Assembly (NCBI GenBank): GCA_017535325.1
Contig: JAFXUC010000029.1
Coordinates: 14,878-78,877, forward strand
Direction: 5' to 3'
DNA length: 64,000 nt
Source: Bacteroidales bacterium
GTDB lineage: Bacteria; Bacteroidota; Bacteroidia; Bacteroidales; UBA3824
The notes under the pieces are model-generated. The model searched no databases. It saw only the letters and a list, made by a program, of their open reading frames with translations, and was not told where the DNA came from. Below, in pieces: positions 26,767 to 60,045 of this stretch. Every line of letters starts with the position of its first letter. Within the stretch, counting starts at the first letter, position 1. The translations under genes were made by a program, and so were the position numbers.

Positions 26767-26779
26767 TATTATAAGAAGT

Positions 26780-26808
26780 GTTGGAGTGCGGGCTTCCAGC
26801 CCGCTTTG
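26780..26808. terminator. GC-rich hairpin (bidirectional terminator) between the DUF4249 gene and the ParE-like gene
   Basis: GTTGGAGT-GCGGGCT-TCC-AGCCCGC-TTTG. A near-identical 26-nt module recurs at 59386..59411. Confidence 0.6.
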
Positions 26809-26819
26809 CTCTAAATACA

Positions 26820-27131
26820 TTATTTAACTTGTGCAGCAAGTGTGTCCGGGTCGCGGCGGCAGTCCCAAAAATCCACCACAGAAACACAATCATCCTTGAT
26901 GCAATAGACAATCTTATTATGACGTGAAACGACAAAACTGCGGTATTCACAAGGCAAATCAATTAAGAAAGGCTCCAACTTTCCGATATAAGGATTGTTT
27001 TCTATAAGTTTTCTCGTATGACGCACCTCGCTCATAAATTTATCTTTACTTTTTCTGCCGAACTCCGTCAAAATGTATTTGGCAGTTTTGTAAATCGCTT
27101 GTTTTGCAAACTTTGAAATAAAAACTTTCAT
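26820..27131 (-). CDS. ParE/RelE-superfamily type II toxin (cassette 1)
   Basis: 103 aa. Typical Bacteroidota ParE-like layout: ...NPYIGKLEPFL...YRSFVVSRHNKIVYCIKDD.VSVVDFWDCRRDP. 4-nt overlap with the upstream small acidic ORF. Confidence 0.75.
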   Translation of the reverse strand: MKVFISKFAKQAIYKTAKYILTEFGRKSKDKFMSEVRHTRKLIENNPYIGKLEPFLIDLPCEYRSFVVSRHNKIVYCIKDDCVSVVDFWDCRRDPDTLAAQVK

Positions 27132-27451
27132 ACCGCTTCTGCCATTTCAAGTTCTGGTTCTTCGATTTTGAGTTCTGACTCTATTTCGTCCATCGCTTCA
27201 TCAAAATCCATATATTCTCCTGCGGCAAACTGCTTTTCACTTTCGGCAATCCGCGCATGAAGTTCTTCAATTGTATAAGGCATGGGAAAGTCCTCTTCTT
27301 CTTCCGACTCTACAAACACCGGTTCAAGACTTCCAAGCAGCATCAAGCCTAATTCATATCTCTGAGCATTATTCAGATTCCATTTTTGCACCTCGTCCCA
27401 ATACGTTGAAACCTGCGGCGCAGCAGTACGTTTTTTTGTTAATGTTTCCAT
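27128..27451 (-). CDS. putative antitoxin of cassette 1 (acidic, 107 aa)
   Basis: Start moved to the ATG at 27451 (METLTKKRTAAPQ...). Acidic C-terminus (EEPELEMAEAV). Translationally coupled to the toxin. No recognisable RHH/HTH. Confidence 0.6.
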   Translation of the reverse strand: METLTKKRTAAPQVSTYWDEVQKWNLNNAQRYELGLMLLGSLEPVFVESEEEEDFPMPYTIEELHARIAESEKQFAAGEYMDFDEAMDEIESELKIEEPELEMAEAV

Positions 27452-27538
27452 AGTAATTTTATTTTTACGGGGTAAAGGTAAAGATTTTTTTTGAATGAAC
27501 AACGTTTTTTTATAATTATTAATTCAATGTTAACAAAA

Positions 27539-27762
27539 TGGAAAAACGATTTTGCACCTTGCAATAATGACTTTTCCATAGTGGAAAAACGATTTTGCAC
27601 CTTGCAATAATGACTTCTCCATAGTGGAAAAATGATTTTGCACCTTGCAATAATGACTTTTCCATAGTGGAAAAACGATTTCGCAGGTTGCAATAATGAC
27701 TTTTCCATAGTGGAAAAATGATTTTGCACCTTGCAATAATGACTTCTCCATAATGGAAAAAC
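27539..27762 (-). repeat. tandem array of 43-bp direct repeats (5 full units plus a 9-nt partial), no spacers
   Basis: Units start at 27539, 27582, 27625, 27668, 27711 and 27754. Plus-strand unit: TGGAAAAACGATTTTGCACCTTGCAATAATGACTTTTCCATAG. It contains the palindromes TTTTCCA-TAG-TGGAAAA and TTGCA-CCT-TGCAA. A conserved 40-nt flank lies at 27497..27536. Confidence 0.95.
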
Positions 27763-27776
27763 TAAATCACAAAAAA

Positions 27777-28091
27777 TTAATACACAAATTCTTTCTTTAA
27801 TTTTTCAGGATTGCGTCTCATATCCCAGAAATCGACTATTTCTATGCTGTAATTACTTATATAGTAGATAATTCTGTTGTATTTGTCAATTATGTAACTT
27901 CTGAATTTCAACGGCGCATCTTCCAATAAAAGTTCTGTTTGACCAAGTTTCGGGTTGTTTTCTAAAAGTTCAGTAATATGAAAAACTTTTTTCAGAAATT
28001 TGGTTTTACTCTTTTTCCCGTATTCGGTTTCTATGTAATCCGCAGTTTTTGAAACCTTTTTCAAGGCGAATTTTGACCATATTACTTTCAT
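27777..28091 (-). CDS. ParE/RelE-superfamily type II toxin (cassette 2)
   Basis: 104 aa paralog of 26820..27131 (NPKLGQTELLL...FRSYIIDKYNRIIYYISNYSIEIVDFWDMRRNP). 4-nt overlap with its upstream partner. Confidence 0.75.
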   Translation of the reverse strand: MKVIWSKFALKKVSKTADYIETEYGKKSKTKFLKKVFHITELLENNPKLGQTELLLEDAPLKFRSYIIDKYNRIIYYISNYSIEIVDFWDMRRNPEKLKKEFVY

Positions 28092-28339
28092 GCCGTCTCC
28101 AATTCGTATTCTTCCATGCCGAGCATCGCCATAACTTCCTCATTTGTATAACATTCGCCGTTTTCTATTTGGCGGTGTCCTGTCATGGCGCGTTTGATAA
28201 GTTCTTCTTTGGGATTTAAATTCAAGAATTCTTTTTCCGTGAGATAATTTTCTAATTCGTCAATCAGCCACGAAATATCTTTGTTGGAAAGCGTCCCGAT
28301 GATAAAATCCTTAAACTTGATTAATTCGTCTTTGTTCAT
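28088..28339 (-). CDS. putative antitoxin of cassette 2 (83 aa)
   Basis: Small acidic protein ending EEYELETA. Translationally coupled to the toxin. Confidence 0.6.
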   Translation of the reverse strand: MNKDELIKFKDFIIGTLSNKDISWLIDELENYLTEKEFLNLNPKEELIKRAMTGHRQIENGECYTNEEVMAMLGMEEYELETA

Positions 28340-36974: not shown

Positions 36975-38066
36975 TTAGTTTTTAATCAATTCATAACACG
37001 TACTTCTGCCGTTGGATTCCGTTTTTATCAAAACCCCTTTTTTTACCAAATCCTGAATGTCCCTGAGTGCAGTGTCAGGCGAACATTTTGCAATTTTTGC
37101 CCATTTGCCGGTTTGAAGTTTGCCTTCAAAACCGTCCCAAAGCATATTGATTATTTTTATCTGACGCGGATTAAATCCAGCCAAACGGTATTTGTCCCAA
37201 AACGCCGCTTTTTGCAAAGTTTTGTCCGTTGTCAGCAAGGCTTTTTTAACGGACTGATTAAGACAGTCCAAAAACCACAAAAGCCATTCTGAAATATCCA
37301 AACCGCCTTTTTGTGTGCTTTCCAAAACGCTGTAATACGATTTACGGTTTTCTGCAATAGCCGCCGACATACTGTAAAAACGGTTACGGCTTTTGTCGCT
37401 GCGAGCCAAAAGCATGTCCATGATAGTACGTCCGAGCCGTCCGTTGCCGTCGCTGAAAGGGTGAATCGTTACAAACCACAAATGCGCTATTGCCGCTTTT
37501 ATTATGCCGTCAACATTTGAGGTTTCGACAAATTTAAAAAGATCTTCCATCATTCCCGGAATCTGCGATGACGGCGGTGCTTCGTAATGCACCATTTCGC
37601 TGCCGTAACGTCCTGAAACCACCTGCATTGGCAAACTGCTTTTACGGTATTCACCCACCGTTATTTTTTCAAAACTTTTTACGGACGGGAAAAGAAGCGT
37701 ATGCCAGCGGAACAGTCTTTCGCTTTTCAGCGGCTCGTCATAATTGCTTACCGCGTCCAACATTACCTCAACAACGCCTTCAACATAACGGTTTGAGGCG
37801 GGAACACCGGCGTTTTCTAATCCAAGTTGCCACGCCACTGACGAGCGCACGTCGTCGCGGCTGAGCATAATGCCTTCTATTGCCGATGACATCAAAATAT
37901 CAGCGGTCATTGAATCAAGAACGGTGGAATTTTTTACGTCAAAACCGAGCGTTGCCATCATTCCCGAAAGCCGTCCTATTTCGAGTTTGACGTCAGAAAG
38001 CCTTTGTAATACTTTTTCTTTGTCCCAAACAAAATGCGGAAAATCTTTTTCTTGCCAGATATACAT
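36975..38066 (-). CDS. Fic/DOC family protein (class II Fic with N-terminal inhibitory motif, C-terminal wHTH)
   Basis: Start moved to the ATG at 38066 (MYIWQEKDFPHF). Canonical active site HPFSDGNGRLGRT (HxFx[DE]GNGRxxR). The upstream SSAIEG matches the [ST]xxxE[GN] auto-inhibition motif. Confidence 0.88.
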   Translation of the reverse strand: MYIWQEKDFPHFVWDKEKVLQRLSDVKLEIGRLSGMMATLGFDVKNSTVLDSMTADILMSSAIEGIMLSRDDVRSSVAWQLGLENAGVPASNRYVEGVVEVMLDAVSNYDEPLKSERLFRWHTLLFPSVKSFEKITVGEYRKSSLPMQVVSGRYGSEMVHYEAPPSSQIPGMMEDLFKFVETSNVDGIIKAAIAHLWFVTIHPFSDGNGRLGRTIMDMLLARSDKSRNRFYSMSAAIAENRKSYYSVLESTQKGGLDISEWLLWFLDCLNQSVKKALLTTDKTLQKAAFWDKYRLAGFNPRQIKIINMLWDGFEGKLQTGKWAKIAKCSPDTALRDIQDLVKKGVLIKTESNGRSTCYELIKN

Positions 38067-38207
38067 ATTGTTTAATTTTTTTCTGCGGTGAATAACCGGT
38101 CTAATCACCGCAAATTCTGCGGCGAATATAATAATTTTTCACCGCATAGAAAAGAAAAAGTAAAAAAAATAAAATTCCAAACATTTTGCGATTTTCGGCA
38201 AAAGTAT

Positions 38208-38215
38208 TATTTTTG
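38208..38215 (+). promoter_or_regulatory. Bacteroidota -7 box (TATTTTTG)
   Basis: TAnnTTTG match 25 nt upstream of the ATG at 38240. Supports the shorter start for the TIR gene. Confidence 0.5.
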
Positions 38216-38239
38216 TGCAGTAAATCAACAGCAAAAAAC

Positions 38240-39262
38240 ATGAACAATCCCGTATATATATCGTATGCTTGGGCTAACGACAACAATCCCGATTTGGAGG
38301 ACGATGTTAACCGTTTGTGCCGCGTTATGGAAAAAAACGGTATTTATTATAAGCGCGACAAAGAAAACCTTTGTCCCTACCGTTGGAGTATAAACAAAGC
38401 CGAAGAAGAAATCGGAGAAGGTTGCGCCGTTATCGTTGTTATCAGCGAAAAATACATAAAATCTCTTCACTGTATGCACGAATGGCATTTGATAAAAGAA
38501 AACGGAAGAATCTGGCAGAGAGTTTTTCCTATCGTTTTAAAAGGTGCGGATTTGACCAACAAATGTAAATATAAGGAGTATTACAAATTTTTTATAGACC
38601 GCCGTGACGAACTTGTTGAACAACTCCGCGAAGGTATTATTCCGCTTTCGCAGTCGGAAACCGAGGCGGCGCGTTTCGGATATTATATCTCCGACCTCGC
38701 TGAAATGTACCAGTATCTTACCGATTACAATACCGCAAAATCCGTAGTCAGAGAAAACGATTTTGAATTGGTAATCAGTCAGTTGAAAAAATATTTAGGT
38801 GTTTTTGACTCTAAGATACAAAAGCCGGAGCCTAAACCGGAACCGAAGAAAGACTCTAAACCCAAAAAAGAACCTAAACCTGAACCCAAAAAAGAAGAAT
38901 CTCAAAAAAAAGGCGGTTCTGTTTATGACGGTTTGACAAAAAGGCAGACTTCCTTGTTGCAAAAAAATATTAACTCCACTTATTATGCGTTTTTGGAGGA
39001 CGAAAAAAATGACAATAACGGTTATGCAGCTAAGGAATTTTTAAAGAATGTAACGAAACCGCTTCGTACTGACGGCGTTTATGATGAGGAAACTAAAAAT
39101 GCTGTTATGGAGTTGCAACACTATCTTAACCGCAGACAAGTAGGTTGGTTGGAAATATCTTTGACGCTTGACGGAATTTACGGTCCTAAAACCGAAGACG
39201 CATACGACAAGTGGTCTAAAAAAGCAAATCCTAATGCTGATAAAAGAATTTTAGATAAATAA
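38240..39262 (+). CDS. TIR-domain protein fused through a PEPK-repeat linker to a peptidoglycan-binding-like (PG_binding_1) domain
   Basis: The N-terminus MNNPVYISYAW and ...VVISEKYIKSLHCMHEW match the TIR beta-A and S..Y..S..C..E motifs. Linker KPEPKPEPKKDSKPKKEPKPEPKKEE. The C-terminal DGVYDEETKNAVMELQHYL...DGIYGPKTEDAYDKW resembles PG_binding_1 repeats. No signal peptide. Confidence 0.7.
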   Translation: MNNPVYISYAWANDNNPDLEDDVNRLCRVMEKNGIYYKRDKENLCPYRWSINKAEEEIGEGCAVIVVISEKYIKSLHCMHEWHLIKENGRIWQRVFPIVLKGADLTNKCKYKEYYKFFIDRRDELVEQLREGIIPLSQSETEAARFGYYISDLAEMYQYLTDYNTAKSVVRENDFELVISQLKKYLGVFDSKIQKPEPKPEPKKDSKPKKEPKPEPKKEESQKKGGSVYDGLTKRQTSLLQKNINSTYYAFLEDEKNDNNGYAAKEFLKNVTKPLRTDGVYDEETKNAVMELQHYLNRRQVGWLEISLTLDGIYGPKTEDAYDKWSKKANPNADKRILDK

Positions 39263-53999: not shown

Positions 54000-54101
54000 G
54001 ATAACTTAGCGGAATCGCCCAAAAAAATCATACATTCCGCTATGCTATCCACGATAACTTAGCGGAATCTGTAAAAAAAATCCACATTCCGCTATGTTAT
54101 C
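54000..54101. repeat. two tandem ~49-nt palindromic units (period 53 bp)
   Basis: Unit 1, 54000..54049: GATAACTTAGCGGAAT-N18-ATTCCGCTATGCTATC. Unit 2, 54053..54101: GATAACTTAGCGGAAT-N17-ATTCCGCTATGTTATC. The arms are reverse complements with 1-2 mismatches in 16. Confidence 0.85.
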
Positions 54102-54108
54102 AAGAAAA

Positions 54109-54141
54109 ATATCGTTATATTTGCAAAAAAAATAACGATAT
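54109..54141 (+). promoter_or_regulatory. 10-bp inverted repeat bracketing the -7 box (TATATTTG, 54116..54123) and the start codon of the ATPase gene
   Basis: ATATCGTTAT (54109..54118) and ATAACGATAT (54132..54141) are perfect reverse complements. The right arm includes the AT of the ATG at 54140. Confidence 0.6.
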
Positions 54142-59110: not shown

Positions 59111-59299
59111 TTTCTTTTTTAATTTTATTAGATAAAACAAAAAACAAAGAAGAATTCAAAACGTCTTCCATTTTGGATTCTCCCTTGCTTAAAACATTAA
59201 CTACGCTGCAAAGTTAATATGAATTTTTGTTTAAAAAAAATTTTTTGAAAGAATTTTGCGAAATTAATATTACAAATGTTTTTTTGTCAGCGGGGGTTT

Positions 59300-59443
59300 T
59301 TGCCGCTAAGAGCGGCAACACAGCCGCCTAACGTATGCCGCCGCTCTGCGGCTGGAATTCTATTACAGGGTGCAAAATATAAAAAGTTGGAGTGCGGGCT
59401 TCCCAGCCCGCCTTATAAGCGTTTTGCAGGCAGGGATGCCTGC
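59300..59443. other. cluster of GC-rich hairpins in an AT-rich spacer
   Basis: TTGCCGCT-AAG-AGCGGCAA (59300..59318). AGAGCGGC (59309..59316) is complementary to GCCGCTCT (59340..59347). CAGCCGC (59321..59327) is complementary to GCGGCTG (59348..59354). GCGGGCT-TCCC-AGCCCGC (59394..59411). GCAGGCA-GGGA-TGCCTGC (59426..59443). Confidence 0.7.
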
Positions 59444-59461
59444 GTTCCAATACTTCTTTAC

Positions 59462-59740
59462 CTTGCAAAATCATTTTGTTACTATGACAAAGTCATTATT
59501 GCAAGGTGTAAAATGGTTTTGCTACTATGACAAAGTCATTATTGCAAGGTGTAAAATGGTTTTGTCGTTATGACAAAGTCATTATTGCAAGGTGCAAAAT
59601 CGTTTTGTCGTTATGACAAAGTCATTATTGCAAGGTGTGAAATGGTTTTGTTGTTATGACAATGTCATTATTGCAATGTGCGAAATGGTTTTGTCGTTAT
59701 GACAAAGTCATTATTGCACCTTGCAATTTTCATTTTGCAA
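59462..59740 (+). repeat. second tandem array of the 43-bp repeat family (6 units plus a partial), inverted relative to 27539..27762
   Basis: Units start at 59462, 59505, 59548, 59591, 59634, 59677 and 59720. Example unit: GGTGCAAAATCGTTTTGTCGTTATGACAAAGTCATTATTGCAA. The 30-nt core equals the reverse complement of the array-1 core. The shared 40-nt flank at 59743..59782 has one mismatch against 27497..27536. Confidence 0.95.
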
Positions 59741-59805
59741 TTTTGTTAACATTGAATTAATAATTATCAAAAAACGTTGTTCTGATATAGTACACAAGCG
59801 AAGAA

Positions 59806-59886
59806 ATGTTCAAAGACCTTAACGATGAATTTCATTTCCTTGATACCCGCCGCGACCCGGACGCGCTTGCCGCACAAGTTAGATAA
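59806..59886 (+). pseudogene. relic of a ParE-like toxin gene (C-terminal 26 codons only)
   Basis: Reads MFKDLNDEFHFLDTRRDPDALAAQVR*. The last ~40 nt are nearly identical at nucleotide level to the 3' end of 26820..27131 (...DFWDCRRDPDTLAAQVK*). Confidence 0.7.
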
Positions 59887-60045
59887 TTTTCTTTCTTTAT
59901 TTCTTTGAAAATCAGTATTTTGCTTCTTACATTAAAAAAAACTAAAAAAAAATTGTTAATTTATTTGGAAAGTTCGTTAAAAAAATATTAACTTAGGGAA
60001 TTAAAAAACAACAACTTTAAAGAAATCGTTAAAAGGTTGTATATT

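Follow-up and report, generated by a model that had tools for sequence, protein, structure and literature searches.

Two arrays of 43-bp palindromic repeats, lying 32 kb apart and in opposite orientation, occur in the stretch of DNA analysed here (the window, 64,000 nucleotides), which comes from an uncultured member of the Bacteroidales that inhabits the gut. The central parts of their units differ in sequence and are nevertheless self-complementary in both. The locus raises the question of what these arrays belong to, and of what keeps their units symmetric while the sequence changes.

Organization of the arrays

Array 2 (59462..59742, plus strand) consists of six 43-bp units, starting at 59462, 59505, 59548, 59591, 59634 and 59677, and a partial unit at 59720; cutting the sequence at 59462 + 43n returns every unit listed in the original prediction, including the partial one. 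Each unit contains a palindrome at the unit junction, TTGCA-N3-TGCAA (P1), and a central palindrome (P2) of type B, TTTGTCG-TTA-TGACAAA, or a variant of it. Array 1 (27539..27776, minus strand) begins right after the stop codon of the toxin 2 gene and is composed of type-A units, in which P2 is TTTTCCA-CTA-TGGAAAA. Tandem Repeats Finder assigns a period of 43 to both regions, with 5.5 copies, 92% matches and a score of 388 for 59483-59718, and 5.2 copies, 92% matches and a score of 392 for 27539-27762. Isolated units are not found elsewhere in the window, which holds two arrays in its 64 kb.

The similarity of the arrays is beyond chance: the shared 24-mer block AGTCATTATTGCAAGGTGCAAAAT occurs 10 times with at most 3 mismatches against 0.00 expected, and all 10 matches in the window fall within the two arrays. 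Perfect P1 copies are also confined to them. The array-1 unit quoted before, GGTGCAAAATCGTTTTTCCACTATGGAAAAGTCATTATTGCAA, is found exactly on the minus strand in the unit at 27601. The "typical" array-2 unit is likewise exact at 59591 but occurs only this once, the other five units differing from it at 1-5 positions. Array 2 is internally more degenerate than array 1, and flipped CCTTGCAA centres are seen at both of its ends. It is an inverted relative of array 1, and the inversion arises because the two cassettes to which the arrays belong sit on opposite strands. A coding reading of the arrays was rejected, since the 43-bp period and the changes in copy number shift the frame and array 2 holds stop codons.

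Both arrays are followed on the same relative side by a common flank, which occurs exactly twice, at 27512-27536 on the minus strand and at 59743-59767 on the plus strand, and a full read of the 40 nt reveals a single differing base (A/C), in agreement with the original prediction. The conserved AT-rich tail of array 2 is longer than was then described. It runs over about 53 nt (59741..59794, plus strand; TTTTGTTAACATTGAATTAATAATTATCAAAAAACGTTGTTC + TGATATAGTACA), overlaps the last partial unit by 2 nt and reads TTTTGTTAAC...GTTGTTC + TGATATAGTAYA, reaching 59794, as it does in the related contigs L025, L048 and L022. Array 1 has the short form without TGATATAGTAYA (27497..27538, minus strand), and the general form is TTTTGTTAACATTGAATTAATAATTAT[A/C]AAAAAACGTTGTTC, with or without TGATATAGTAYA. 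This tail is present after every array whose downstream end is on a contig.

Directly upstream of array 2, two GC-rich hairpins and TCCAATACTTCTTTAC (59390..59461, plus strand) are present in all occupied alleles of the locus. They are related to a single hairpin at 26770-26810, after toxin 1, and each is then followed by TCCAAYACTTCTT; the stems GCGGGCT/AGCCCGC and GCAGGCA/TGCCTGC differ by compensatory changes. The single hairpin also resembles a terminator for the convergent DUF4249 gene.

Covariation of the central palindrome

P1 spans the unit junction with loops of AGG, ACC, CCT, CCC or ATG, whereas P2 is central and has 7-bp arms and a 3-nt loop. The dyad centres of P1 and P2 are spaced 21 and 22 bp apart. 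Since the spacers between the dyads are themselves roughly complementary (GTCATT vs AAATGA/AAATCG), each unit is one long imperfect palindrome and the entire array can self-fold. Read in the register of array 1, with 7-bp arms and a 3-nt loop, type B has one G.T and differs from type A by two true double changes, T-A to G-C and C-G to T-A.

To describe the covariation, 26 distinct full units from related contigs were aligned with a two-helix structure (P1 and P2) named. In this alignment the P2 helix is 94.5% paired and two-sided changes are present in 5 of its 7 pairs, including UA/GC, UA/CG/AU and CG/UA; the units are related, with an effective sample of about five P2 types. P1 and P2 together pair in 95.2% of cells; a shift of the 3' partners by 1-3 columns lowers this to 37-54%. 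None of the P1 pairs is changed on both sides, the arms being conserved with one-sided transitions only. Besides types A and B, the units include B1 (TTTGTTA-CTA-TGACAAA) and B' (TTTGTTG-TTA-TGACAAA). Wider sampling for a freely varying centre brought further types that are still self-complementary, namely type C, which includes the perfect palindrome TTGTCATGACAA (L010), and types D (CTCTATA-CAT-TATAGAA) and D1 (TTCTACC-AAT-GGTAGAA), both from L022.

P2 covariation is therefore real and extends over at least five sequence types, within the limit set by the relatedness of the units. P1 is conserved in sequence, and P2 is free in sequence but kept symmetric. The claim that the central palindrome retains its complementarity as its sequence changes thus holds. 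Selection is one interpretation of this among others, since template-switch correction of quasi-palindromes or unit-level conversion could also match the arms. The sequence-free P2 beside the conserved P1 offers a testable contrast that separates selection on DNA or RNA structure from mutational upkeep of palindromes.

Related loci, copy number and mosaic arrays

Species-representative genomes and metagenomes were covered by one pattern scan each, with an exact pattern that could miss divergent copies. The genome scan returned five stretches, of which only L004 is a tandem array; the other four are single-site matches in other genomes, and the one of these that was read (L005) sits inside an ORF. 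The metagenome scan returned a handful of contigs. Array and tail have no match among plasmids, and the pattern scan of viral contigs is empty; phage matches comprise only 45-bp AT-rich stretches inside T4-like head genes, which we regard as chance. With arrays found by these scans in few Bacteroidales contigs only, the array family is lineage-restricted. About 40 alleles of both loci were collected by exact-protein look-ups with toxin 1, atpB, greA and antitoxin homologues.

Array 2 is located in the greA-atpB spacer. An intact toxin-antitoxin (TA) operon is present in this position with about 1.8 units in L062-64 and with 5-6 units in L052 and L065. L044 has a dead fused ORF and 3 units, the window and its close relatives have a remnant (31 codons in the window) with 4-6 units, and L004 has a larger deletion with 5 units. 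The array is absent from L040 and L043, in which ATTTTCACTTTGTTAAC may be its scar. Locus 1 has between 3 and 6 units. The array is thus a variable-number repeat, with 0, about 1.8, or 3 to 6-7 copies depending on the strain; the whole range is seen between near-identical strains, and every intact cassette sampled has at least 1.8 units. Because assemblies often break inside the arrays, copy numbers from short reads are minimum or uncertain values. A run of N lies inside the array in L034 and L042, and contigs end at the arrays in L010, L020, L029, L030, L032, L037 and L038.

The greA-atpB spacer (59111-60045 in the window) is a hot spot of cassette turnover; its alleles in the window and in L040, L041, L043, L044 and L062-64 are variously empty, occupied by a DUF3791/DUF3990 insertion, by an intact TA operon or by a dead fusion, or reduced to a remnant. 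The arrays both break metagenome assemblies and mark this hot spot. The 32-kb segment between the arrays was considered as a mobile element or invertible segment and rejected, as it contains housekeeping genes and has the same flanks in every allele.

The unit types are mixed among these alleles. In L052 a single operon is preceded by two B units and then three A units, L050 has a hybrid unit that is A on the left and B on the right, and L048 has one A unit and then B' units. The orthologue of array 2 in L004 is of type A. In L025 and L027, the antitoxin is identical to that of the window (107/107) and toxin 1 is the same exact match, while the arrays are of type B' with flipped junctions; L025 is a recombinant, with the array, tail and leader of L048 and the coding region of the window. 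These cases demonstrate that the P2 type is exchanged unit by unit and block by block. The P2 type is uncoupled from every neighbouring gene. The original prediction of compensatory evolution in situ in the two arrays is not borne out, because both types circulate in the population and recombine unit by unit.

Toxin-antitoxin genes and the operon remnant

Downstream of array 1, antitoxin 1 (107 aa; 27128..27451, minus strand) precedes toxin 1 (103 aa; 26820..27131, minus strand). Toxin 1 belongs to the RelE/ParE superfamily, its homologues having a precomputed PF05016 match, and is 47% identical to ParE toxin 2. The latter (27777-28091; Pfam PF05016, E = 1e-9) is part of the TA2 cassette (27777..28339, minus strand), composed of an antitoxin of 83 aa and a ParE toxin of 104 aa, and it is this toxin gene that array 1 abuts. 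The TA2 cassette varies among strains: L025, L027 and L049 lack it, with the array abutting the FtsX stop codon, and L048 has a truncated form.

Array 2 is followed by the remnant of a deleted TA operon (59794..59886, plus strand), which comprises 30 sense codons, TSEEMFKDLNDEFHFLDTRRDPDALAAQVR, and a stop. The remnant corresponds to the C-terminus of the toxin and to the final part of the antitoxin-toxin ORF that is fused in L044, and its last 41 nt match toxin 1 at 90%. Array 2 is therefore the upstream region of a second cassette of this kind, the genes of which have been deleted. It is an orphaned copy and a paralogue of the intact cassette at 26820-27776.

The N-terminal 48 residues of the antitoxin are nearly invariant in the array-associated clade, whereas the C-terminal half is exchangeable. 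These residues occur in combination with at least three different C-terminal halves; in L052 the partner toxin is only 41% identical to toxin 1. The 48 codons have pN of 0.00-0.03 against pS of 0.03-0.40. Noncoding DNA is also constrained: of the 87 bases of tail and leader, 8 differ in a comparison of the window with L048, against a pS of 0.36 in the adjacent coding DNA, and conservation in the P1 arms, the GTCA block and the tail exceeds that of nearby synonymous sites. The 43-bp array is absent from a related antitoxin clade with a different N-terminus, and for the divergent antitoxin of L060 the contig includes only 170 nt of upstream sequence, too little to be informative. More distantly related antitoxins (L054-L059) form part of tandem sets of two or three ParE-type pairs, which lack the 43-bp array. 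Searches of Pfam, NCBIfam and PDB sequences for the fold of the N-terminus gave sub-threshold matches only, and the AlphaFold2 model of the antitoxin (pLDDT 66, pTM 0.27) is too poor for a fold search.

A proposed operator-like control region

We tentatively propose, at a probability of roughly 40%, that the arrays, as an expanded and phased upstream region, control a TA cassette of the RelE/ParE family in the manner of an operator, and that array 2 is an orphaned relic of such a region. All A/B-type arrays whose downstream side is on the contig are followed by the tail and then by a METLTKK-type antitoxin and a RelE/ParE toxin, or by a remnant of these. The operator-like reading further draws on the decay series at greA-atpB, which leads from the intact operon through the fused ORF and the 31-codon remnant to the larger deletion, and on the observation that about 1.8 units suffice beside an intact operon. 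It is also favoured by the constraint on tail, leader and P1 together with a modular antitoxin of invariant N-terminus, and by the lack of arrays in the antitoxin clade with another N-terminus. Precedents exist in sopC and in the multi-site TA operators compared below. Type II antitoxins are usually modular, with a DNA-binding N-terminus that goes with its operator and a toxin-binding C-terminus (PMC3920265). By analogy, the invariant N-terminus and the conserved noncoding DNA point to P1 and/or the tail as the sequence that may be recognised.

Under this proposal, the 43-bp unit would be one long dyad-symmetric module, with P1 conserved in sequence and P2 conserved in symmetry alone. A minimal intact cassette carries about 1.8 units; slippage and unequal crossing-over would expand these to 3 to 6-7 and also shuffle the unit types between strains. 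The array would act as double-stranded DNA presenting phased dimer-binding sites, with the 43-bp period corresponding to four helical turns and the dyad axes recurring every two turns. The best candidate for the binding protein would be the antitoxin of the cassette, which would contact P1 and/or the tail through its nearly invariant N-terminal domain, and its binding may lead to cooperative autoregulation of the TA operon. The relic at array 2 might still titrate the antitoxin made at locus 1. We infer the protein binding, the regulatory role and the position of the promoter.

As for the promoter, the octamer TACCTTTA (27473..27480, minus strand) is the sole match on the array strand to TAnnTTT[G/A], the -7 box of Bacteroidetes, with a TTG 19 nt upstream, and is a candidate TA1 promoter. 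It lies downstream of the tail, with the array about 60-350 nt upstream of the box and not over it, and no TAnnTTTG box is found inside the arrays. A sigma-70 promoter and terminator scan was uninformative in a Bacteroidales genome.

Several observations argue against an operator. The antitoxin has no recognisable DNA-binding fold, and the array is well upstream of the sole candidate -7 box. Because the P2 type is uncoupled from the neighbouring genes, a sequence-specific protein does not explain P2 covariation. The type-D array of L022 precedes a DUF6261 gene, with no TA homologue on that contig, and arrays persist and keep varying once the adjacent operon has been lost. If the arrays are a phased operator, they would constitute a TA control region in which the number of sites varies among strains, a natural test of operator multiplicity in autoregulation, and would place a 43-bp, four-turn repeat architecture outside plasmid centromeres.

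Alternative explanations

An RNA element is a rather unlikely alternative, though one with several points in its favour. The array would be read through from the upstream gene, and its hairpins would serve as a stabiliser, terminator, insulator or RNase III substrate, in resemblance to intercistronic REP/BIME, with selection acting on RNA structure. This agrees with the covariation of P2 without sequence conservation and with the imperfect hairpin of about 20 bp that each unit could form. In four independent contexts the array begins 0-15 nt past the stop codon of a co-directional gene; this gene codes for toxin 2 in the window and for FtsX in L025/L049, while in L022 it encodes a methyltransferase and in L010 a GH2 enzyme. 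Read on the array strand, the departures from pairing are in many cases G.U, and in 10 arrays of A/B/B' type this strand folds better than its complement by 3-30 kcal/mol.

The types C and D, however, fold better as the opposite strand, and flipped P1 modules yield A.C on the array strand. Counted by site, wobble changes number about 7 on the array strand against 3-5 on the other, a difference that is not significant. Moreover, greA is divergent at locus 2, which excludes read-through there, and P1 is conserved in sequence and not merely in structure. A terminator-like tail is found neither after the array nor as a similar site between array and genes, and Rfam returns no match at gathering score anywhere in the window. 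The array starts at stop codons fit a 3'-UTR element, and they also fit a deletion-prone palindrome in which deletions are stopped by selection at the gene end. Strand asymmetry was discarded as a test of RNA against DNA, as it is inconsistent among unit types.

The arrays could also be a palindromic minisatellite without function, which we regard as unlikely. An ancestral inverted repeat upstream of the TA operon would have been expanded by slippage, and the arms would be matched by the template-switch correction and unit-level conversion mentioned above, not by selection. Such an origin would accommodate the copy-number range from 0 to 6-7 between near-identical strains, the mosaic arrays and the hybrid unit, the survival and continued variation of arrays after operon loss and the greater degeneracy of array 2, as well as the few copies per genome and the narrow range of lineages. 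It accounts less readily for P1 arms, a GTCA block and a tail that exceed nearby synonymous sites in conservation, for the retention of at least 1.8 units in all intact cassettes sampled, or for a P2 that is paired across types differing at 5 of 7 pairs.

A site of recombination or a cassette junction is considerably less probable. As with integron attC sites, recognition would depend on the structure of the folded hairpins, and TA and other small cassettes would be gained and lost through them. In its specific form, which we consider equally improbable, the arrays would be attC-like, sequence-free hairpin sites by which Bacteroidales swap small cassettes, including TA pairs, restriction-modification genes and DUF3791/DUF3990, with the recombinase encoded elsewhere. 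If true, this reading would explain why P2 covaries, why arrays start at stop codons and why the cassettes next to them are polymorphic. That polymorphism includes the variable state of TA2, the DUF3791/DUF3990 insertion in L041, a restriction-modification pair upstream in L022 and the empty allele L040, and the preservation of structure rather than sequence fits as well. Against it, an integrase, transposase or other recombinase is absent within about 6 kb of any locus, and none is present among the inter-array ORFs of at least 220 aa. The array starts fall in differing unit registers, target-site duplications and a clean empty site were not found, direct reading reveals no GTTRRRY core, and inversion between the inverted arrays is seen in no allele.

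The earlier suggestion that type-A and type-B arrays serve as operators with distinct specificities, one for each cognate antitoxin, was prompted by the two different palindromes adjoining TA-type genes in the window and is now hardly credible, given that array 2 has no antitoxin gene or operon, that the same antitoxin and toxin follow type A in the window and B' in L025/L027, that B and A units stand before a single operon in L052, that the array 2 orthologue of L004 is of type A, and that hybrid units exist.

Comparison with known systems

The closest system in form is sopC, and the closest in context are multi-site TA operators. In plasmid F and its relatives, sopC consists of 43-bp repeats in 3-17 copies; each repeat spans about four helical turns, so that the sites lie on one face (PMC3177203). 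The present arrays share with it the direct tandem repeats of about 43 bp with an inverted repeat in each unit, the copy number that varies between replicons, the four-turn period and conserved spacers. The sopC dyad TGGGACC-RY-GGTCCCA, however, has no sequence similarity to the present arrays, whose units hold two dyads, one of them free in sequence. Furthermore, sopC belongs to an enterobacterial plasmid, whereas the present arrays are chromosomal in Bacteroidales with housekeeping neighbours. ParA/ParB (SopA/SopB) genes were found neither around either locus nor among the large inter-array ORFs, and there is no plasmid match.

Multi-site operators are known for type II TA systems, such as the tandem inverted repeats of relBE, the four sites of hipBA and the heptads of omega (PMC3920265). 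As in these, dyad-symmetric sites are iterated upstream of a TA operon and the antitoxins are modular. Known TA operators, on the other hand, have 2-10 short sites that overlap the promoter, in a number constant between strains, whereas the present arrays comprise from 1.8 to 6-7 of the 43-bp units and are placed well upstream of the candidate promoter, and their variable palindrome does not track the antitoxin. A type III TA (ToxI-like) array was rejected, since the downstream genes encode a protein antitoxin and a RelE/ParE-type toxin rather than a toxin of ToxN/AbiQ/CptN/TenpN type, and no terminator-like site separates them from the array.

The REP/BIME elements of enterobacteria are imperfect palindromes that lie outside genes in tandem clusters, with some units flipped, variable unit number and frequent placement past stop codons; REPs are GC-rich, number hundreds of copies and are linked to RAYT transposases. 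The present arrays resemble them as extragenic tandem palindromes with flips, placement at stop codons and variable unit number. In contrast to REPs, they are AT-rich, number one or two per genome and go with a single family of TA cassettes. The many dispersed copies typical of REP/BIME are not seen, as there are two arrays in 64 kb and, by exact pattern, one tandem array (L004) among the representative genomes.

BrickBuilt, a minisatellite/MITE of Porphyromonas gingivalis, is built from a 23-nt unit, ends in inverted repeats and is present in about 19 copies per genome (PMC4596501). It is similar to the present arrays in its occurrence in Bacteroidales, its intergenic tandem repeats without spacers, its distinct "tail" subunit and its lineage restriction, but the present arrays are palindromic, low in copy number and variable at their upstream boundary. 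Terminal inverted repeats of a BrickBuilt-like MITE are not visible, the upstream boundary falling at differing points of the unit among loci. Two further classes were set aside: integron attC sites, given the tandem units, a nearest motif (GTTAAC) that fails GTTRRRY and gene tables without an integrase; and CRISPR arrays, given units that run head to tail without spacers.

Other elements in the window

A 99-bp GC-rich element (CGGGGGTTTTTGCCGC...GGCTGG...) at 59291-59389 is absent at the same site in L045, whereas L004, L052 and L065 carry it the other way round; its behaviour is like that of a small element of REP/MITE type, mobile or invertible. Between the arrays, Fic/DOC-domain and TIR-domain proteins are encoded adjacent to each other at 36975-39262 among housekeeping genes, and may be defence or toxin proteins. 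At 54000-54133, just upstream of an ORF that starts at 54140 and has an ATPase_2 domain, an element of about 52 bp that is self-complementary (GATAACTTAGCGGAAT ... ATTCCGCTATGCTATC) is present twice.
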